Source: a virus (Duplodnaviria; Caudoviricetes). Taken from it: a stretch of 32,161 nt of DNA. The stretch is from the IMG/VR virus record IMGVR_UViG_3300025779_000010, positions 1 to 32,161 of that record; one strand, 5' to 3'. Below, piece after piece: positions 2,600 through 32,161 of this stretch (the stretch's first letter is position 1; each line of letters opens with the position of its first letter). The translations under genes and the position numbers were made by a program. The notes beneath the pieces are model-generated. The model ran no database searches and was not told where the DNA came from. It worked only from the letters and a program-made list of their open reading frames with translations.

Positions 2600-3196
2600 T
2601 TAATATGTTAATGATACGCTAACGCCAGCAGGTCTAGGAAATACGCCCGAATTATTAATAATGGCGATTTGAACGGCACTTGGTACAAATGTTAAATGAT
2701 ATTGAAATGCCATACCACCTGAATCAATTACATAAGCTGCACCGTAAGGATTTACGCCATCACTTGTTCCAAATTCAGCTTGCAATAAAGCATTGATAGA
2801 AGGAATAGATAAATTAGAAATATTTGCAGCAGCTTTAACTAAAATCAATCTACGATATTGAGCATCAGACAAAGCATAAGTTGTTGTTGATGTAGCTCCC
2901 AAATAAAATGGAGCTTGATTAAAAGGCTGTGCGCCTGTCGATAAAGTAGGTGTAGTAACTGATTCATCAAAACCAAAATAATTTGACGCATTAATTTGTA
3001 AATAGCGTGATACACCTACAATTTGTCCCCAAATATCTAACCCGTTTCCTACCGCAGTTGCAACGTTCCAAATTTGAGTATAAAAATTTGCAATATCAAC
3101 TGAAGGGTCTATTGCATCATTAAATGATTGTAATATACCAACCAATGTTGGCGAATCAACATATTGACTTAATAAGGTTTCGTTCCAATTTATCAT
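2600..3196 (-). CDS. Baseplate wedge protein (DUF2612-like)
   Basis: SQY..SP, TAVGNGLDIWGQIVGVSR, LSDAQYR, PRPAGV motifs; follows baseplate J. Confidence 0.88.
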   Translation of the reverse strand: MINWNETLLSQYVDSPTLVGILQSFNDAIDPSVDIANFYTQIWNVATAVGNGLDIWGQIVGVSRYLQINASNYFGFDESVTTPTLSTGAQPFNQAPFYLGATSTTTYALSDAQYRRLILVKAAANISNLSIPSINALLQAEFGTSDGVNPYGAAYVIDSGGMAFQYHLTFVPSAVQIAIINNSGVFPRPAGVSVSLTY

Positions 3197-4401
3197 GCTA
3201 ATGTCACTGCTATATTAGATGCTGTTAATGTTGGAACTTGGTCAATGCCAAGTGATACTGACAATGTGCTAGGACTAGCACTTGCTCCTAAATAAACTTC
3301 AATTACGTTTACATTAGGATTAATAGCATTGATATTAGCGTAATAACGACCTGAATAAGAAGTAGAACCAATTGTTACAGCAGTTCCGCCATCTTGCCCA
3401 TTAAAGGACTGAATAACAGCAGCTTGAACCAATTGAATAATATTAGATGGCAGCAAAGCACTATTTTTAATTTGCACAGCAAAATAAATAGGAGTAGAAG
3501 TTGGAGTAAGCCAAGTTACTGTATAAGCTGGTGGAGTTGAATAAGTTGTATCATAAACTGTGTATGATGTATTTCCGTTATAACTTGTTCCAGGAGGTTT
3601 TTTACTCCAAATTGCTTGAGCAATTGCTGAAGCAGAACCACCAGCTACGGATACCGTAATAGAATGAGCAGCCATTGAATAATTGGTGCTGCCATAAGTA
3701 ATTGTGCTTCCTGTAGGATTATCTACTACCAAACACCCAATAACATTAGGAACTTGAGTTACAGCAGCATAAATAGAGCTAAGAGAATTTACTGAATTAC
3801 CAGCTACAGAAGCAGACCTACGAGCTTCAAATGCAGCTCTTGATTCTACAAGATTACCAAGTGTTCCAGCAGTAGGATTAGTAATTGTATTCCATCCTGC
3901 AATTGCAGTATAAATTGTATTTAATGCGCCAGCAGCACAAGCAATTGCGCCTTGAGTTTGATTTTGAAATTGAATAGTGACTGTACCCGTAGATGGTATA
4001 GTTGCCGTAGCTGTAGATGAATATAAATAACCGCTAGTATCTTGCGCTACAGAACCAGCAGGAATAATAGTACCAACAGCACCTGTGCAATTACAAGATA
4101 CCACTGTACCAGCTCCGGGGATTCTAGTAATAAAATAAATTTCACCGATAGCATCTTGCCATATTCCTGAAGCCATTGATGGATTAACTTGATTTGCAAT
4201 ATAAGCAATTTCATTATTTTTCTCACCAATAATAGCCGTTTCAGATTGTGCAATTTGACCTTGAGGAGTTTGTAGTGATGGATTTACGCCACCACCAAAA
4301 GCAGCATTAATATCGGCTTGAACTCCTGCTAAAATATCTGTTTCAGCAGGTAATACTGGACTGCCATTTACCCAAGTTATTTGTGGGACATTAGTTGTCA
4401 T
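3193..4401 (-). CDS. Baseplate J-like wedge protein
   Basis: TPQGQ, GIWQDAIG, ESRAAFEARR motifs; size and synteny. Confidence 0.9.
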   Translation of the reverse strand: MTTNVPQITWVNGSPVLPAETDILAGVQADINAAFGGGVNPSLQTPQGQIAQSETAIIGEKNNEIAYIANQVNPSMASGIWQDAIGEIYFITRIPGAGTVVSCNCTGAVGTIIPAGSVAQDTSGYLYSSTATATIPSTGTVTIQFQNQTQGAIACAAGALNTIYTAIAGWNTITNPTAGTLGNLVESRAAFEARRSASVAGNSVNSLSSIYAAVTQVPNVIGCLVVDNPTGSTITYGSTNYSMAAHSITVSVAGGSASAIAQAIWSKKPPGTSYNGNTSYTVYDTTYSTPPAYTVTWLTPTSTPIYFAVQIKNSALLPSNIIQLVQAAVIQSFNGQDGGTAVTIGSTSYSGRYYANINAINPNVNVIEVYLGASASPSTLSVSLGIDQVPTLTASNIAVTLA

Positions 4402-4406
4402 ATAGT

Positions 4407-4772
4407 TTATCCAAAGGCTACGTTGTTAATTACACCATCTGTGTCAATAATTTGTATTTCACCTGACAAAACACGATTAGTAAAAGATGTAAATGTTACT
4501 TTAGTTTTTGAAACATTAGGAATAGTAAATGCAGCTTCAGTAATTTTTTGGTCAAAAAATTGTAAAGGTGGAAATTTACCTAAAATATTTTGCCAATATG
4601 GAAGCCCTAAAGAATTATCATACCAACACTCACCGACAAACGTTCTAACGGCAGAAGCAACATCTTGAGCAATAGAATAAGGCGCATTAGCAAGAGCAAT
4701 ATTTCCGTTTACATCAAGCACAATATCCCATTGTGACTGGTCAAGCAATAATGTATTTTGAATAATACTCAT
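4407..4772 (-). CDS. Baseplate wedge/sheath initiator (gp25/Mu gp46-like)
   Basis: WDIVLD..GNIA, AQDVASAVRTFVGECWYDNSLGLPY; ATG overlaps HNH stop (TAATG at 4774-4770). Confidence 0.85.
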   Translation of the reverse strand: MSIIQNTLLLDQSQWDIVLDVNGNIALANAPYSIAQDVASAVRTFVGECWYDNSLGLPYWQNILGKFPPLQFFDQKITEAAFTIPNVSKTKVTFTSFTNRVLSGEIQIIDTDGVINNVAFG

Positions 4773-5278
4773 TATGCAGCCCTTGCAAATTCACCATGAT
4801 ATTTTTCTCTAACTTCATTTGCTACTAATTCAGCCAATTCAAAATCATCAAAATATCCTATATGTTTACTTTTTTTATTAATTCCAATTTGAACTTTCCA
4901 TTTATTTTTTGGTTTAAACCAATAAACACATTTTGCGCCCGTTGTATTATGTTTTGGCTTTTTCATATTGTAATTATTTTCTGTTTGAGTAGCTTCTCTC
5001 AAATTTTCAATTCTATTATCTGTTGTATCGCCATTTACATGGTCAATACATTTAGGACAATATCCATAATGCAATATAAAAATTAATCGGTGAGCGTAGT
5101 GCATTTTTTTGTTTATTCTTATTCTGCAATATCCATTGCCATTATCAGAACCAGCCTGTTGTCCTTTTTGCGCTCTTGAATTAACAGTTTTTTTCCAAAA
5201 TAGCTTGCCTTCATTATAATCAAATAAAGAATTAATTATTGATTGGTCAAGTAATAGAGTATTTTGAATTATTGTCAT
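4772..5278 (-). mobile_element. Free-standing HNH homing endonuclease with C-terminal AP2-like domain, fused to a duplicate of the baseplate gene's first 13 codons
   Basis: YAHRLIF...IDHVNGDTTDNRIENLR HNH core; TGAKCVYW...KWKVQI...IGYFDD AP2-like region; N-terminus MTIIQNTLLLDQS versus neighbour MSIIQNTLLLDQS. Confidence 0.92.
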
Positions 5279-5286
5279 ATATCACC

Positions 5287-5982
5287 TTACATTGAATTGC
5301 TTGGAGTTCCAGTATTTCCACCTTGTGGGTCAGAATGAGTATGGCTATTGTATAGACTACGCATTTGAGCCATTGTGTGAGTATTGGTCGCAGAATTGTC
5401 TATAATATCGCCACTTACCTTTAAAAGAGGAGTGTTCATTGTAACATTAGTTGACGAATTTACGATTGCCGTTGGCGCATTTATCGTTACGTTTGTTGGC
5501 GAAGTAATTGTTATTCCTGAACTATTAAATTGAACATATTGCGTAGGTGCTGCACCAATAATAGTCATCAAATAAACCATGTCGGACATATCATGTTTAC
5601 GATTTGAACCAGGGGCTGATACTTTGCTTGAGTTTTGAACTGTTGATATATCTCGGTCACAAACAGAAGCTATTCCAATATCACCAACAACAGGGTCTAA
5701 AATAATTCCGTTAGCTCCGCCTTGTATTCTCATATAAGGTACGTTATGAATAATTCCATGCGCCCAAATCTGACCTGAGCCATCTACTGAGCTAACCATT
5801 GGTTGAACATCTACAGTTCCAATAGGTGAAACTCCACCTGCGTTAGTCACAGAAATTACTTGAACAGGCATTGACGTTCTAACTCCTGACAATGCTGTCT
5901 TGATAATTAATTGTAATCGACCAATTTCAGAAGCATTATCTGCTGAAACGTAATTGGTTTGATAATTAGTTGTTTGCGACAT
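5287..5982 (-). CDS. Baseplate central spike (gp138/gpV-like)
   Basis: OB-fold-like N-terminus (VDVQP, P..GDIG...CDRDIS, RKHDMSD), beta-repeat C-terminus ending in HTH metal-binding motif (SHTH). Confidence 0.88.
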   Translation of the reverse strand: MSQTTNYQTNYVSADNASEIGRLQLIIKTALSGVRTSMPVQVISVTNAGGVSPIGTVDVQPMVSSVDGSGQIWAHGIIHNVPYMRIQGGANGIILDPVVGDIGIASVCDRDISTVQNSSKVSAPGSNRKHDMSDMVYLMTIIGAAPTQYVQFNSSGITITSPTNVTINAPTAIVNSSTNVTMNTPLLKVSGDIIDNSATNTHTMAQMRSLYNSHTHSDPQGGNTGTPSNSM

Positions 5983-6820
5983 AAGGTGGTGGAGCTAATG
6001 TAGTTGTTGTGAACCATGGACCATCGGGCGTTAATGTGCTAATTTCATGAGCAACGCTTTGTATTGCAAATGTTCCGTTCGCTTTAGGAAGTGAAGTTGT
6101 TATTTTCATTTGCCTTCCATTAAGAATTTGTGGATTAAATTCAGATTTTATTACAAATCCTGATTCCCAATAAGATGGATAACCAACCATTCCTGTTTGC
6201 GGACTCATATCAATAATCATATCATCTCTAAATCCGTTATTTGGAAATATAATTATTGTATTATTTTCAATAACAATTGGTATGCTTGCTGCTAAAGCAA
6301 CTTGACGCATTTGGTCAACAGCAGAGCCATATACATATTGATTTTGTAAAATTGCGTGTGCGCCATTATTTTGAAAATTTAACCCACATGATTTTGCTAA
6401 ATTTGCAATAATAACTTCTGCACTTTTTGCACCTTGATAAGTATTTGAAGCTACAGGAGTTCCTTTTTGCAAATATCCAGCAACTGCAGCACAATTAAAA
6501 GATATGTTTGGCATATTGCTTAAATCAATATAACTAGACATTAAATTGCCTTGAAAAACTTGCGACAATGCAATATCACCTTGATTCCCAGCACTTACTG
6601 TAATTGATTGTTGTTGAACAGCAACTTGATTAGTGCCAATACTTGAATATTCATTCATTTGAGCCAATGTCATGCCGTAAACTTTTAACTGCAATTGACC
6701 AAATGCCATTGAACCGCCTGGATTAACAATAGTTGCAGAACATCTCAACCCTTTTAAATTCACAACTTGTGAATTAACTCCACTAAATTGTAAATCAATT
6801 TGTCTAACAGCAAATGTCAT
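5966..6820 (-). CDS. Baseplate hub protein
   Basis: LKVYGMT, SPQTGMVGYP motifs; synteny upstream of spike. Confidence 0.8.
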   Translation of the reverse strand: MTFAVRQIDLQFSGVNSQVVNLKGLRCSATIVNPGGSMAFGQLQLKVYGMTLAQMNEYSSIGTNQVAVQQQSITVSAGNQGDIALSQVFQGNLMSSYIDLSNMPNISFNCAAVAGYLQKGTPVASNTYQGAKSAEVIIANLAKSCGLNFQNNGAHAILQNQYVYGSAVDQMRQVALAASIPIVIENNTIIIFPNNGFRDDMIIDMSPQTGMVGYPSYWESGFVIKSEFNPQILNGRQMKITTSLPKANGTFAIQSVAHEISTLTPDGPWFTTTTLAPPPYVANN

Positions 6821-16743: not shown

Positions 16744-18432
16744 TTATTTACCTTCTAAGAAACGTTTAACGAAATTGTTTTTGCGAGTAGCATGAGAATC
16801 CATAGCTACAGCAGTTGATACACCTTTGCCTTGTAAGAAAGCATTTAAGAATGTAACACGACCAGTCTTAGGTGCTTCTACACCAAGTTTTTTCAAACCA
16901 TATTTAGCCATTTTGTCCAAATCCATTTCTGAATGGTCAAATGCGCCAATATGTTTTGATAAGCGTTCATAGAGTTTTGCTTTTTCAGCAATGTTTTTCT
17001 CTACTTTAGCAACGATAGCAGCAGCGTCCATACCATTGCCACGTTCACCTTCCATTGGTTCTTTCTCAGCACCACCAACCTTACCACCAGCAAGACCCAT
17101 TTCTTCGTCTGTTGCTTCGTCATCAGGTTTTTCTGTATCGCCATCAGGTTCGGTTTCATCTTCGTCAGCAACAGCTTCTTCACCTGCTGAACCAAAAGAT
17201 TGACCCGTTAATTCTTGAATTTTTGCCAATTTTGGCATGACTTCTTCAAGGAATTTATGAACTTCCTCTAGGGTCATAGTAGGCTTCTCGCTACCTACTT
17301 CTTTGTTTTCTTCAGCCATGTTAAAAAGCTCCTTATTATCTACTGTAAAAGTGAAATGGTCTAATACTGCTACATCAGGACCCATACGTCCGTTTTCGAC
17401 TAGGGCTAGATGATTGCCTCTGATTTCTCGTTGCACATAATCATAAGCTACACCATCATAAACTCCAGGAGCATATTCATATCTGCAACGATAACCGCAG
17501 GACAATTCTTTTTTACCGTTAGCAATAAGATTACTCATTGCTTCGGAAAATACTTTGATATTACCTTTAAGATATTCACCATCGAAATAAACATCTTCAC
17601 CGATAACACCTTGAATACCTTTTGCTTCGGCAGGAGTTAAACCTTCATCTTCACTGCCAAGCATAACGTGATTATCAATCCAGGGGAGCAACTTGAATGA
17701 GTTAATACATTCCTCAGTTGATAGTTCTTCTGCTGGACGATATACGTTGTAAATCTTATCTTGTTCGCAATCAGGAGAGATTGAACCGCCTGAATATTGA
17801 AAAATACCTATTTTAGAAAGCGGATTGTCTTTTACTTCAAACCATCCGTTTGTATCATATTCACGCTTATCCATTGCTGAAGCGTTCTCCTCAGCTTTTT
17901 CGGCAATTTCTTCTTCTTCCCCGTCAATTTTGTGAAACAGGGGATTGGGTGCATCTTCAATCGTTGCCCAAACAAATTCGCTGTGTTCGTCATTTAATTC
18001 AGGTTTAAATTCACCATCATTACATCCAAACAAACGAACTTTTCCATCTTCATAAATCAATTGAAGTCCAGTTTCAGGAACGTGCATTGTTTCTTCACGG
18101 GATTCACGAATAGCACCTTCAATTGCTGATTCGCCTTCTTCAACGTGACCGCCAGGAAAGCCCCAAGAATCATCTTTGGTACGTTTTAACCAAAGGATTT
18201 TGTCATCATCTGTATAAACGATAAACGCAACAATCTTAGAATCAGGTTCTTCTTTTAAATCACGCTTATGTGACTCATGTTCTGTTTCGGTTTCTTCTTC
18301 ATCAACCGCAGCGCATTTACGAGCATTTTGATAAGATGCAGCAATAGATTGATTAAGCGGATGCCCAGCCTTAACCATCTCACGGATATTTTCTTGAATT
18401 ATTTTCTTGCTACATCCTTCTAATAAAGGCAT
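16744..18432 (-). CDS. Prohead protease/scaffold (DUF2213-like) with N-terminal Nudix hydrolase domain
   Basis: Nudix box [22 protein letters not shown]; DUF2213 motifs [29 protein letters not shown]; acidic scaffold-like C-terminus; AAGGA RBS. Confidence 0.9.
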
Positions 18433-18435: not shown

Positions 18436-19043
18436 GTTCCTTTCTTAAGAGGCATTTTATGAATAAATGTATTGTATGTGACAAAGAGTTTCCTCTCAAA
18501 TATAGAAGCAAGGGAATTAAACAAGTTTGCTGTTCTAGAGCTTGTTCCTATAAACATCGTGGTGATAAAGAGGTTATTTGTAAAACTTGTAAAAAACCTT
18601 TTAGAGCGCATGGACTTAGACAATATAAAGAATATTGCTCTCTTGCTTGCGTTCAAAGGGAGCCTTGCCAAACTTGTGGAGAAATAATTACTGGTAGAGC
18701 AAAGTTTCAAAGTGGAGAAAGAAAATTTTGTTCTAGAAAATGTGCAGGAATTTCTCGAATCATTAATGGTAAAGCAAAAGTTCATTACATGGCAAATGGA
18801 TTTGCTCAAACTATTAAAAAGTTTGGAAAAATATGTTGTGAAATTTGCAATCAATTTAATATTGATTTTCTTGTTGTTCATCATATAGATGAAAATAGAA
18901 AAAATAATGAACCAAACAATCTTCAAACACTTTGTGCAAATTGTCATCATCAATTGCATTGGAAAAATTCTCGCAATAGAATTAATAATATTGAAAAAGC
19001 TAAATTTATTGCTAATAATTCCACAACCTGATTTTAACGGCAT
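18420..19043 (-). other. 207-codon antisense bridge ORF starting at the relic protease start (MPLKSGC)
   Basis: ATG overlaps upstream stop (TAATG); open across the entire HNH gene; stops just past the protease ATG. The product does not resemble a folded protein family. Confidence 0.5.
18459..19031 (+). mobile_element. HNH endonuclease with N-terminal Cys-rich zinc-binding repeats, opposite strand to operon
   Basis: Three CxxC...CSxxC repeats; CEIC...LVVHHIDENRKNNEPNNLQTLCANCHHQLH HNH core; only convincing plus-strand gene. Confidence 0.92.
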
Positions 19044-28002: not shown

Positions 28003-28170
28003 TTACCAGCCTAATTGATTTACGACCAATTCCATAACTAAAATTTCTAGTTTTTCTTTGTTAGGCATTGTATTCATTTTTAATTCTGCTTTTGCCTTGT
28101 GCGTAAATAAACATTCATCAACTGGTGATTTGTCGTGTTTAAAAACCACACACCATCTTTTAAATGTCAT
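28003..28170 (-). CDS. Small hypothetical protein (55 aa, missed by ORF track)
   Basis: MTFKRWCVVFKHDKSPVDECLFTHKAKAELKMNTMPNKEKLEILVMELVVNQLGW; overlaps methyltransferase end and fills the gap to terS. Confidence 0.65.
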   Translation of the reverse strand: MTFKRWCVVFKHDKSPVDECLFTHKAKAELKMNTMPNKEKLEILVMELVVNQLGW

Positions 28171-29323
28171 TAATTAACTGTGCTTTTTTACCTGTAAAGT
28201 CTTCCCAACGCTTAACAATTACATCACAATAATGTGGTTCAAATTCCATCATAAAGCATGAACGATTAGTTTTTTCACAAGCTATTAATGTTGAACCTGA
28301 GCCACCAAACAAATCTAATACTGTGTTTACTTCTTTAAAATAATCAAATGACCATTCAGCCAAAGCTACAGGTTTTTGTGTTGGATGAACACGCTTTTGA
28401 CCATGCTCTGAACCTTTGATTAAACCTTTCCATAAATGTCTAAATATTCTAACGCTTGACCATTTAGATTTAACCCAAGCTAGTTCACAATCTGACTGTG
28501 TATCTTTTTGCTTTTCTTCAACACGCTTATCCCAAACAAACCAATTGTTAGATTGTGGCAAAGCGTGACAATAATAATTAGCACCCCACCAAACTTGTCT
28601 TGGTATATTTAATGCACCCTCTACAATTTGATAAGCCTCTACAGCATAATCAATTGTATCGTCTTTAAAATCTTTTAATTTATTGCCTTGAGCTAAACCA
28701 CCACGTTTAGACCTATCACCTTTTTCATTAATTCCATAAAGAGGGTCTGTGTAACATAAATCAATCTTTGTGCTATTAACTAACTTATCCACAGCATCAA
28801 TGCTTGTGCTATCGCCACACATCAAACGATGATTACCTAGCTGATATATATCCCCCAACTTTGTAATTGGCTCGTATGGCACATCAGGAATGGCATCCTC
28901 ATCTGTTAAACCTTCTATTTGCTCAGGTTCAATAATTTTATCTAAAAATTCTTCATCAAAACCTAAAAGAGATATATCAAAATCAAATTCTTTTAAATCT
29001 TCAATTTCAATTTTTAACATTTCTAAATCCCAACCAGCATTTAATGCTAGGGAATTATCTGCAATAACATACGCACGTTTTTGAGCTTCGGTTAATCCAG
29101 CAAGAGTAATAGTTGGAGCTTCAGTAAAATTTAATTTTGAAGCAGCAAGAACTCGCCCGTGACCAGCAATTATGCTTCCTGTTTCATCGATTAAAATAGG
29201 ATTAGTCCAGCCAAACTCTTTTATGCTTGAAGCAATTTGAGATATTTGTTCATTGGAATGAGTGCGTGAATTCCTTGCGTAAGGAATAAGTGAATCTATT
29301 TTTTTATATTCAATTTTAAGCAT
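28160..29323 (-). CDS. ParB-like domain fused to N4/N6 DNA methyltransferase (catalytic motif reads DPLY)
   Basis: LIPYARNSRTH...IIAGHGR...IADN ParB-N domain; HRLMCGDS, TDPLYG, HPTQKPV, DLFGGSGST. Confidence 0.92.
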   Translation of the reverse strand: MLKIEYKKIDSLIPYARNSRTHSNEQISQIASSIKEFGWTNPILIDETGSIIAGHGRVLAASKLNFTEAPTITLAGLTEAQKRAYVIADNSLALNAGWDLEMLKIEIEDLKEFDFDISLLGFDEEFLDKIIEPEQIEGLTDEDAIPDVPYEPITKLGDIYQLGNHRLMCGDSTSIDAVDKLVNSTKIDLCYTDPLYGINEKGDRSKRGGLAQGNKLKDFKDDTIDYAVEAYQIVEGALNIPRQVWWGANYYCHALPQSNNWFVWDKRVEEKQKDTQSDCELAWVKSKWSSVRIFRHLWKGLIKGSEHGQKRVHPTQKPVALAEWSFDYFKEVNTVLDLFGGSGSTLIACEKTNRSCFMMEFEPHYCDVIVKRWEDFTGKKAQLINDI

Positions 29324-29352
29324 AATTTTTAGACGAGCTTATCCCCACAGTC

Positions 29353-29380
29353 AAAATATCATATCTATGAATTATGTCAA
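29353..29380 (-). promoter_or_regulatory. Putative sigma70 promoter for packaging/morphogenesis operon
   Basis: TTGACA (29380-29375), 16 nt spacer ending in TGn, TATTTT (29358-29353), in one of the few intergenic gaps. Confidence 0.65.
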
Positions 29381-29388
29381 GCATTATT

Positions 29389-29634
29389 TTACCACTCCGT
29401 TTTATGTGGTTCGTCACAATCATACGGGTCTATTGTTGCAACCCATTTATCCCAAAGCGTCCAAGCCTCACCTAAATTATTATATGTTTTTAAAGATATG
29501 CCATAACTTGCTCTAATTGGCTGCCATAATGTGCTGTCTTGCGGAAGATACTTTGCGCCAATATGAATCAATGGCGTATTGCGTAAATGGTGCTCTTTAG
29601 GTAAAGTTTTTAAATCTACTTCAATATATTTCAT
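29389..29634 (-). CDS. Hypothetical protein
   Basis: Likely start MKYIEVDL at 29634 via TGATG overlap with the upstream stop. Confidence 0.6.
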   Translation of the reverse strand: MKYIEVDLKTLPKEHHLRNTPLIHIGAKYLPQDSTLWQPIRASYGISLKTYNNLGEAWTLWDKWVATIDPYDCDEPHKTEW

Positions 29635-29981
29635 CAGACTACTCCAGCTACTGTTAGCTTTCGCCACAAATAATCATGTCCGAATGAAAGCGCAGTTTCG
29701 TATTGATAATGATATTTCCATTCGTTAGGTAACAGACCAATAGAAATTTGTATTGCGTCTACCATAAATCCCTTGCCTGATTGCGTTAAGCTGGTCATGG
29801 CTGCATCTACGATTTGAACTGTGTAGTTGTCGCAATCATCGCCAATGTCATCCCAGCAATTTACGCCACCGCTAGAGATACCCATAGATTTTTGCGGATA
29901 ACCTAAACGTGAACCATCATGGCGCATCCATATAGCCCATAATTCAAGACATTCTTTAAGTCTAATAACATCAATTACCAT
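29634..29981 (-). CDS. Putative Q-like antiterminator/late transcription regulator
   Basis: L..WA.WMR....RLGYP.KS N-terminal pattern; located just upstream of the putative late promoter. Confidence 0.55.
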   Translation of the reverse strand: MVIDVIRLKECLELWAIWMRHDGSRLGYPQKSMGISSGGVNCWDDIGDDCDNYTVQIVDAAMTSLTQSGKGFMVDAIQISIGLLPNEWKYHYQYETALSFGHDYLWRKLTVAGVV

Positions 29982-30168
29982 ATAAATATCTAGCAGCTTC
30001 TCTTATAGCTTCAGCCAATGTGGTTTCTCTTGTATTCTTTGGCAGCTTGGCAAGTTGTTCTTCGGTAAAGATTGCAACTTTATTTTCTCGCCATCCGTTT
30101 TTTTTAATAACAAAAGGGTCAGGTACACTTGAAACCATGTTAGCCAACGAACTTCTAATTCTTGCCAT
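29971..30168 (-). CDS. Hypothetical protein
   Basis: Likely start MARIRSS at 30168; overlaps both neighbours. Confidence 0.6.
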   Translation of the reverse strand: MARIRSSLANMVSSVPDPFVIKKNGWRENKVAIFTEEQLAKLPKNTRETTLAEAIREAARYLYGN

Positions 30169-30295
30169 TAGAATGAAACCCAAATGCAAATGCCAAAATT
30201 AACCACCTTATTTCAAATGAACTACGTTTAGTATAAATTACAATTGTTGGAATTAAATAAATGGAACGTAAATCTAATCCCAATACAAAAAACAT
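30155..30295 (-). CDS. Small hydrophobic protein (46 aa, missed by ORF track)
   Basis: GGGAG RBS; MFFVLGLDLRSIYLIPTIVIYTKRSSFEIRWLILAFAFGFHSNGKN. Confidence 0.55.
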   Translation of the reverse strand: MFFVLGLDLRSIYLIPTIVIYTKRSSFEIRWLILAFAFGFHSNGKN

Positions 30296-30327
30296 AGTTT
30301 ACTCCCAATTTGTTATGTAACTATACC

Positions 30328-30438
30328 TCATTTTTTACAATGATTGTATAAATCTTGAAACCAAAACCAAACAATTACAAAAGGAAGCCATATAGGAAAA
30401 GTTAAAACAATTAACCATATTTTATGTTTCAACTTCAA
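30328..30438 (-). CDS. Small membrane peptide (36 aa, TTG start)
   Basis: Starts directly after the dioxygenase stop: MKLKHKIWLIVLTFPIWLPFVIVWFWFQDLYNHCKK, one TM segment. Confidence 0.45.
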   Translation of the reverse strand: MKLKHKIWLIVLTFPIWLPFVIVWFWFQDLYNHCKK

Positions 30439-31242
30439 TTATTTATCCCAATAATTATTAAATGCTTTTAAAGGATAAAATACAAGAGAGTTTCTATAGC
30501 CTTTTTCAGAAAGAGGAACAATAGGAGTAACGCCATGAACGTTGCGCCAAGCAGGGTAAACAAGCATACTATTGTCGCTAGAATCAACAGTCGCACCGTA
30601 ATCAGGAACGGTAGTATTGCCACCTCGAGCAAATTCTCTTTTTGCAATAATAACATTTACGCAATCCTTAAGGTTAGCAGAGTCGATATGATAATTAGCT
30701 GCAATGTTAAAATTTGAAATAGAACTTGTAAACAACTTTCCAAATCTAAATTTAGGAGGCACATTTTCTTCAATTGTTTTTAACTGTTTGTCATAAACAT
30801 TAGGTATTATTTTTTTTATTAATTCTTCCGATTCTCTGCAAGCAAGCAACATAGCTTTAATAAATGTTTGAGCCGATTTTTCATTGTGAATTGTTGATAT
30901 TCTAGGGTAAGGCATCCTCATGTGAGGTCTTGGAGCACAAGAGCCTATAATCGCGCTGTATTGGTCAACAAGCAACCTTCCTTCTTTTTCAAGTTTTTCA
31001 ATGTACCATTTGCTTTTTGGACCACGATTCATTACTGTTTTTGGTACTCGGTCAGATAAAAATTCAGCGTTTGCTATTTCTACATATTTTTTTAATTTGT
31101 CAGGTATATTTTTAATATAAAAACCAATGGGTTCGCCGTCGGCAACAAAAATAGTGTCCTCAATAACATTTGGTTGCAAATCAGGACATTCATGACCTAT
31201 TTTTACATCGTGCGGTTGTTTTTTAAGATGCAATATTTTCAT
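30439..31242 (-). CDS. TET/JBP-family 2OG-Fe(II) dioxygenase
   Basis: FTSSISNFNIAANYHID (HxD), VHGVTPI (distal His), YRNSLVFY (2OG-binding Arg); context with kinase and transferase. Confidence 0.85.
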   Translation of the reverse strand: MKILHLKKQPHDVKIGHECPDLQPNVIEDTIFVADGEPIGFYIKNIPDKLKKYVEIANAEFLSDRVPKTVMNRGPKSKWYIEKLEKEGRLLVDQYSAIIGSCAPRPHMRMPYPRISTIHNEKSAQTFIKAMLLACRESEELIKKIIPNVYDKQLKTIEENVPPKFRFGKLFTSSISNFNIAANYHIDSANLKDCVNVIIAKREFARGGNTTVPDYGATVDSSDNSMLVYPAWRNVHGVTPIVPLSEKGYRNSLVFYPLKAFNNYWDK

Positions 31243-31711
31243 TTAACATTCTCTTTATAATTAAAAGTGCTGTGTCACTATCCAAAACTTCAATATTGTG
31301 TTTAATGTTATTAACTCTTGTTTGAATAGATTTTAATTGCCGTTCACTTTGATTTGATTTTCTTTTTTTTCTTCCAGCTTCACCGTCATCCATTATTTTT
31401 ACAATTGTTGGTGAAAATTTAGCTATAAAAGTGCTGTTAGTAAATCTATCGCCTTCACATACGATAATTGAATTGTATTTTTCTTGCAATTTTTTTAGCA
31501 AATCGCAATCGCTCATAACAGCCATACTTAATTTATCGCTACCTTCAAACGTACTTTTGTCATAATTTCCAAGAACAAAGATTTTATCGTTTGTTTGAAA
31601 TACAACTTTTCCTATTTTGGCTTTTTTATTTAATTTAAATTCTTCTATAATTTTATTCATTACCCAAGTTTTACCGCTTCCGCAATTACCTATAAGCAAT
31701 ATGGTTGTCAT
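31223..31711 (-). CDS. P-loop nucleotide kinase of DNA-modification clusters (PLNK3-like)
   Basis: LLIGNCGSGKT Walker A, LG.Y....FEGSDKLS, IIVCEGDRF, R..R.SNQ motifs. Confidence 0.82.
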   Translation of the reverse strand: MTTILLIGNCGSGKTWVMNKIIEEFKLNKKAKIGKVVFQTNDKIFVLGNYDKSTFEGSDKLSMAVMSDCDLLKKLQEKYNSIIVCEGDRFTNSTFIAKFSPTIVKIMDDGEAGRKKRKSNQSERQLKSIQTRVNNIKHNIEVLDSDTALLIIKRMLNENIAS

Positions 31712-32161
31712 AACGATTCAACTCCTGTTAAGCCTTTAGTAGTCCAAAGTTTTTTTCTTTCTTTTCTAATCCCTTTCCATCCATTAAGTTCGCCTAACAA
31801 ATTGTGATTAAAACTTTTGTATCTTATTTCTAATATTGTTCTCCAAAGCTCTTTTTTTTCAGGCCAAGTTTTGTTGTATTCAATAATGTATTCTAATTGC
31901 CTGTCATGATGATATCCGCCATACCTGCTGTTTTTAAATAAATTTCTAAAACTACATAATTTGGTTATAAATAACGGAATATCAACTTTTTGTTTATATT
32001 TATTTTCAATTGCTTGTTCAATGGTTTTTACAGTATTTAATAAAACAGGATACCAAACTTCTAATTCTGATTTTTTTATAAGTTTTTTATCAAACTTATT
32101 AGCAAGCTCATCTTGATAAATAATATTAAACACAGCAGATGTTAAATTGTCGCAATTTTCC
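31708..32161 (-). CDS. Partial amino acid:DNA transferase (aGPT-Pplase2-like), C-terminal part
   Basis: Frame stays open to the window edge (ENCDNLTSAVFNII...); LCSFR.LFK..RYGGY..DRQ, WP....W....R, LGE..GW.GI motifs. Confidence 0.7.
   Translation of the reverse strand, partial: ENCDNLTSAVFNIIYQDELANKFDKKLIKKSELEVWYPVLLNTVKTIEQAIENKYKQKVDIPLFITKLCSFRNLFKNSRYGGYHHDRQLEYIIEYNKTWPEKKELWRTILEIRYKSFNHNLLGELNGWKGIRKERKKLWTTKGLTGVESL

Follow-up and report, generated by a model that had tools for sequence, protein, structure and literature searches.

The window, meaning the whole stretch of 32,161 nt analyzed here, covers the structural block of a myovirus-like phage, encoded on the - strand. Terminase, capsid, sheath-type DUF3383, tail lysozyme, hub, spike, baseplate J, and endolysin genes are recognized by Pfam. 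Runs with the window sequence are labeled freshwater, sediment, or lake water, and no RNA datasets occur among the 24 runs listed. In the head module, DUF2213 carries a NUDIX domain fused in front (16744-18432, -), and a further HNH gene, unrelated to that of the baseplate locus and bearing Cys-rich repeats, lies on the opposite strand within the head gene block (18459-19031, +), where it is overlain by a 207-codon ORF on the - strand.

Between a spike-type baseplate gene and a gp25-like sheath initiator gene lies an HNH-AP2 endonuclease gene (Table 1). Its ORF fills a 506-bp insert, with neither an intron nor an intein around it; positions 4200-6000 gave no Rfam match at E ≤ 1. The spike-type assignment is based on an N-terminal Pfam domain (PF18352, E 1.6e-6) and on the equivalent slot in Aeromonas phage vB_AsaM-56, annotated as 'baseplate spike'. 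The sheath initiator matches PHROG 120 (E 2e-27) and, in profile comparisons, the solved sheath initiators 9b45_G, 8env_H, and 7yfz_X (E 3e-7 to 4e-5).

Table 1. Features of the baseplate locus in the window
Feature	Positions	Strand	Remarks and basis
Spike-type baseplate gene	5287-5982	-	Upstream of the HNH gene; 3' end is the putative left homology arm
GGTGA ribosome-binding motif of the sheath initiator gene	5282-5286	-	Now ahead of the HNH gene
Upstream copy of the first 13 codons	5240-5278	-	In frame with the HNH gene
HNH-AP2 endonuclease gene	4772-5278	-	168 aa
HNH domain	~4973-5101	-	Pfam
AP2-like domain	~4793-4936	-	Pfam
Tract foreign to the resident L004-type allele	4736-5259	-	506-bp insert plus converted codons; alignments with empty alleles
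TAATG overlap of HNH stop and baseplate start	4770-4774	-	Sequence
Downstream (replacement) copy of the first 13 codons	4734-4772	-	
gp25-like sheath initiator / baseplate wedge subunit gene	4407-4772	-	121 aa; intact host gene
Baseplate J-like gene (gene J)	3193-4401	-	Pfam PF04865; junction ahead of it empty in the window

Judged by its sequence, the nuclease is of the ordinary HNH-AP2 type, which is known among phage endonucleases (described in the accessible parts of PMC2248197, PMC10448857, PMC12724721, and PMC5936750). Pfam HNH_3 is matched above the cut-off (E 7e-17), the C-terminus matches AP2 below the curated cut-off (E 0.002, 18.8 vs 33.3 bits), and PHROG 99 is matched from residue 10 onwards (E 8e-68). 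Residues D79, H80, N88, N92, and N101 are invariant among 81 aligned relatives, and the catalytic residues are intact. A sequence search of the PDB returned nothing at E ≤ 0.1, and a fold search with the HNH model returned no match at E ≤ 0.001, the top match being a weak one to I-HmuI (1u3e, E 6.5e-3). The predicted C-terminal fold comprises three strands and a helix, and AP2 chains are among the weak fold matches (E 0.09 and higher). Among cultured phages no close relative was found (3,572 of 3,573 records fall below 60%), nor was there any HNH match in 20 prokaryote-genome loci with baseplate homologs.

Two gene starts and their source alleles

The HNH ORF starts with MTIIQNTLLLDQS and the sheath initiator gene with MSIIQNTLLLDQS (both - strand). 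Direct comparison bears out the original observation that the copies differ at 7 of 39 nt and share 12 of 13 residues; the differences fall in six codons, five of them synonymous and the sixth a T2S exchange (2 nt). The likeness ends after codon 13, and the next-best 39-mer in the window matches at just 24 of 39 positions. The GGTGA motif and the TAATG stop/start overlap, both described from the outset, are present: GGTGA directly follows the spike stop, 3 nt 5' of the HNH ATG, and the same intergenic sequence precedes the baseplate ATG in the empty alleles L004-L012. The overlap likely couples translation of the baseplate gene to that of the HNH gene, as far as the sequence can tell. Pairing energies at the ribosome sites do not separate the two starts (-4.8 vs -4.2), while a hairpin over the downstream start is computed at -12.8 vs -5.7 for the empty allele, values obtained without a shuffle control.

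The nuclease had been described as fused to 13 baseplate codons. The fusion is real; the extra residues number only about nine, since residues 10-13 fit both proteins and stand in register with the native HNH N-terminus. Opposite L9-L10-D11-Q12-S13, the commonest residues in 120 HNH homologs are M-I-T-Q-E, and the commonest length to a conserved Tyr is 13 residues vs 21 here. In the predicted model residues 1-7 are of low confidence (thin alignment) and a helix runs from residue 12. The in-register replacement of the native HNH start by the baseplate codons LDQS suggests how the fusion originated. In the sheath initiator, L8, L10, D11, and Q12 are invariant among seven aligned homologs, so that the gene probably needs a substitute for its first 13 codons.

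The insert is optional at its allelic site. Among 166 fetched loci (a count that includes identical contigs filed in two collections), 14 are empty with an L004-type start and four carry the window's arrangement, three of the latter being identical to the window over 4407-5982 and possibly the same data. Downstream, the window differs from empty L004 at one position in 2,824 nt; upstream, it differs from empty L008 and L009 at 10-12 positions over ~2,400-2,500 nt. The downstream copy departs from the resident empty allele at 9 of 39 nt, vs 1 of 321 in the rest of the gene (Fisher p 8e-9), which upholds the claim that the nuclease brought its own version of the 5' end. The claim that it captured the resident start holds in part: the upstream copy is identical to the resident L004-type allele at 34 of 39 positions, and only its first six codons can be resident, as the match extends over 19 nt (5260-5278), while codons 7-13 traveled with the cassette. 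By these alignments, the traveling unit begins at codon 7 of the upstream copy and ends at codon 13 of the downstream one.

For the placement of both copies, 157 loci supplied 54 distinct 39-mers; nine further loci lacked a usable start and were left out. The upstream copy is 38/39 identical to an L073-type empty allele, whose gene otherwise differs from that of the window at 68 of 324 nt. The downstream copy has no whole match: its codons 8-15 are identical to those of L075, L077, and L146, it lies at least 5 of 39 nt from every other sampled allele, and some change in place is therefore possible. The proposal that the copies derive from different alleles, not from a fresh duplication, thus stands.

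Contigs from other runs carry the same junctions. A contig of run X6 covers 4706-5289 with 0 differences, and a contig of 741 nt from run X16 reaches across both junctions (4670-5410) and has L013/L073-type bases at 5281, 5283, and 5320. The X16 contig has no full explanation among the sampled alleles: it shows 12 differences, where 20 (L013) or 30 (L073) would be predicted. Runs X21 and X23 hold the filled form together with an empty form whose joint skips the 506 nt. At 4726 the X23 cassette contig leaves the window sequence with a loose end of 13 letters, under the 31-letter bridging rule, that matches L075-type codons 16-20, into which the contig appears to run. The spare copy and L075 share a stretch of 28 nt, and the assemblies of these runs presumably use 31-letter words; a false join is unlikely, as the shared stretch is shorter than such a word. 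As a guess, the X21 and X23 cassette contigs, seen only downstream from 5256, belong with the nuclease P0121 (see below). In L075-L080, codons 9-18 of the sheath initiator form an allele patchwork within near-identical genes, as repeated short conversions would give.

Nuclease relatives and neighboring junctions

Members of the 90% cluster of the window protein start with MTIIQNT or MTIIQNS, the latter in P0121, P0122, and P0127, which were compared as protein sequences. A further relative, P0002, likewise compared as a protein sequence, is 63% identical and starts with MATIQNTLL, the start of nine other baseplate loci; its capture length differs from that of the window. Once N-termini are trimmed, P0002 and the window's group come out as sisters (SH-aLRT 97) in a tree built by a quick method from 45 rows selected among 245 proteins, with locus ORFs added. 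HNH homologs at unrelated loci that also begin with IIQNTLLLDQS had been named as grounds for refutation, and the comparison did not refute the proposal: 11 of the 245 match a baseplate start at 8-9 of nine residues, all in two clusters, and the other 234 reach at most 6 of 9. The borrowed residues and the frame are kept in nine of the eleven cluster 1 members, the remaining two being N-terminally short. Viral contigs contain no close locus for P0002 (seven distant ones, 44-53%), and a degenerate-pattern search for further fused variants returned just three contigs, already known.

Other HNH genes occupy the two junctions of the sheath initiator. At the same junction as in the window, nine loci carry a different HNH gene (43%), with only the stop/start overlap recreated on each side and no codon capture. 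Before gene J, eight full HNH genes (49%) and 12 remnants were found in the 166 loci, and Aeromonas phage vB_AsaM-56 has an annotated HNH gene there. In L103-L106, L108, L172, L173, and L175, two different full HNH-AP2 genes flank the sheath initiator, one per side; in L083 only the upstream gene is present. None of the junction inserts of L133, L198, L210, and L212 gave an HNH match; these four loci and L204 carry non-HNH inserts at the sheath initiator's two junctions, some on the opposite strand.

The remnants (L075-L080, L146, L149-L152, and L191) are open frames of 26-39 codons that lie between the sheath initiator and gene J and end in a TAATG overlap with the latter. The L075-type remnant is identical to the 3' end of the window's HNH gene at 62 of 69 nt. 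Compared with empty L139, it has a four-codon version of the same layout, with ATG ACA ATT AAT in front and ATG TCA ACT AAC behind the TAATG, where the empty allele reads ATG ACA ACT AAT. Recoding cannot be read from an M-S at codon 2 of gene J taken on its own, since empty L084, L107, and L115 have it too. All three distinct deletions (L075 type, L150, and L191) leave an open frame from the start to the overlap, for which the probability by chance is ~1 in 27, a pattern noticed after the fact. Read from the sequence, these open frames fit selection for translational coupling.

Proposed homing into a gene start

The feature is real at the level of sequence and has unusually good allele evidence; direct observations are its anatomy, the existence of empty alleles, the tract foreign to them, and the fact that close relatives begin with different host-type starts. 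They are probably best explained by a 506-bp HNH-AP2 cassette that is inserted in frame within the opening 13 codons of the sheath initiator gene, uses its ribosome-binding site and start, carries a replacement start, and is likely propagated by homing when a co-infecting phage has an empty allele. Homing is favored by the near-identity of the empty alleles on both flanks of the foreign tract (9/39 vs 1/321), the co-occurrence of empty and filled forms in X21 and X23, the different host-allele starts of the nuclease relatives, the appearance of the cassette with other flanks (X16 and X23 contigs), and the intact catalytic residues. The sister remnant at gene J, with its four-codon version, and the frame left open by every deletion point the same way.

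Such an element would have been born when illegitimate recombination joined an HNH gene with the native start M-I-T-Q-E to the L-L-D-Q-S codons of one allele, the start of a second allele being placed behind the HNH stop. Spread would start with a nick or cut made by the enzyme in the unbroken region of spike end and gene start in an empty phage. Repair from the donor would then involve a left crossover in the spike end or first codons and a right crossover just past codon 13-16 of the spare copy, leaving the recipient's first codons on the nuclease and giving its baseplate gene the start of the donor. The element might protect itself in that the insert splits the target and the spare copy respells it. 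The baseplate gene would be re-initiated at TAATG once the nuclease is translated.

Alternatively, the nuclease may be a standard free-standing homing endonuclease that cuts at a distance, or a passenger moved by general recombination; the duplicated codons would in that case be left over from a single insertion, a scar conferring no immunity. These phages are mosaic in general, and recombination of the usual kind could move the cassette: at other places, empty relatives show long dense blocks of differences from the window (up to 17-19 per 39 nt), and under such heavy background recombination mosaic flanks do not prove homing. Other HNH-AP2 genes stand at both baseplate junctions without capture, and the cut sites of the free-standing enzymes of T4 lie far from their own genes, at distances of hundreds to thousands of bases (according to the portions of PMC2988022 available). 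Against this, on both sides the foreign tract gives way, within a few codons, to otherwise near-identical backgrounds, and a clade spanning 63% identity keeps host-allele-specific starts, so that we consider such an origin unlikely, if the most serious competitor. It is extremely improbable that the fusion was domesticated, its peptide targeting the protein to the baseplate or tuning sheath initiator levels to the benefit of the phage. The conserved frame and borrowed residues in cluster 1 would agree with domestication; the patchy presence (4/166 loci), the decayed remnants next door, and the different capture length in P0002 would not.

The two copies might also have arisen by one target-site duplication in a single phage and diverged in place. 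Both share T7 and S13 against the resident allele, and the downstream copy equals no sampled allele, with its AGT at codon 2 found in 0 of 53 others. The distances argue otherwise: from one natural allele (L073-type) the upstream copy lies 1 nt and the downstream copy 8 nt, the latter shares 24 straight bases with a different allele (L075-type), and a 1-nt distance is rare (5 of 1,378 pairs of other alleles), which makes divergence in place very improbable. An assembly chimera of two phage strains, anticipated as an objection and conceivable where empty and filled alleles co-occur in samples, is virtually excluded, and indeed already refuted, by the X6 and X16 contigs that cross the junctions; moreover, at least 81% of the sampled words occur in the 24 runs listed.

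Relation to known homing systems

Homing by the cassette would have precedents, to judge from the accessible parts of the sources cited here. In catalytic residues and, given its putative AP2 domain, in domain layout the nuclease resembles free-standing HNH-AP2 (HNN-AP2, I-HmuI-like) enzymes and the mob/seg enzymes of T4 (PMC2248197, PMC2988022, PMC10448857, PMC12724721). The patchy presence beside essential genes and the decayed remnants recall the intronless homing of mob/seg genes; the stop/start overlap has a counterpart in mobE (UAAUGA), and segC also adjoins gene 5.1/5.3. Free-standing phage enzymes are described in these sources as intergenic, with distant cuts, whereas in the window the HNH gene is set within the start of another gene, forms a fusion with it, and brings along a substitute start.

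A duplicated fragment of the host gene that comes from another allele and restores that gene is typical of WHO elements and gene hybrids, and it is present here. WHO elements of Torulaspora/Lachancea likewise do without splicing, use the duplicated fragment as a homology arm, and replace a gene end by a divergent allele; they involve the 3' end of FBA1 (~400 bp) and an intein-derived zinc-finger fusion with its own expression, for which cleavage and resistance were shown (PMC7282813, as far as its available text goes). The present case, as described from sequence, differs in having 39 bp at the 5' end and an HNH-AP2 enzyme fused in frame. It is not a WHO element, lacking a LAGLIDADG plus zinc finger protein at the 3' end of FBA1 and having instead HNH-AP2 at the 5' end of a phage gene. 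In the fungal mitochondrial hybrids of Glomus (atp6, atp9, cox2, and nad3), an endonuclease ORF also brings a foreign gene end and is sometimes in phase with the host gene, Allomyces atp6 being cited as well; these hybrids are C-terminal, LAGLIDADG or GIY-YIG, and organellar, unlike the window's (PMC3630166, in excerpt). The layout is best read, by analogy, as a mirror of WHO elements and fungal gene hybrids at the opposite (5') gene end.

The T4-type MobA element in a topoisomerase gene is also a phage HNH element within coding sequence that carries its own divergent homR and a new start. There, 55-75 nt are deleted, the protein is split in two, and a ribosome bypass insert is needed for immunity, polymorphisms in the element-supplied homologous stretch alone having failed to block nicking (bioRxiv 10.1101/2022.08.31.505936, as excerpted). 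In the window, the host gene shows neither split nor deletion, and the nuclease uses the old start. Assignment to the MobA type was rejected, the host being an unsplit sheath initiator and not a split topoisomerase with terminal extensions and a bypass cassette. Apart from this partial analog, the accessible portions of the open-access literature gave no account of start capture in phages.

If the homing interpretation is true, phage homing endonucleases gain a further route into essential genes, in addition to those through introns, inteins, split genes, and ribosome bypass, and one would expect to find HNH genes with wrongly annotated starts as well as structural genes whose 5' ends are mosaic. 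More tentatively, the locus may exemplify a long-lived, splicing-free class of phage homing elements in the start of an essential structural gene, in which the 5' end is swapped with each jump, translation of the gene depends on the nuclease frame, and only in-frame decay is tolerated. Such a class would mirror the WHO elements of yeast at the 5' end and would drive the shuffling of N-terminal alleles among phage tail genes; this broader proposal is quite possible, though we hold it with some reserve. Target, immunity, and coupling are directly testable because the locus is small (506 bp) and has natural empty, filled, differently occupied, and decayed alleles. Elsewhere in the window (28160-32161, -), a ParB-like plus DNA methylase gene, a Tet/JBP-like oxygenase (below cut-off), and a P-loop protein are encoded; they possibly form a DNA-modification cluster, which could affect nuclease targets.
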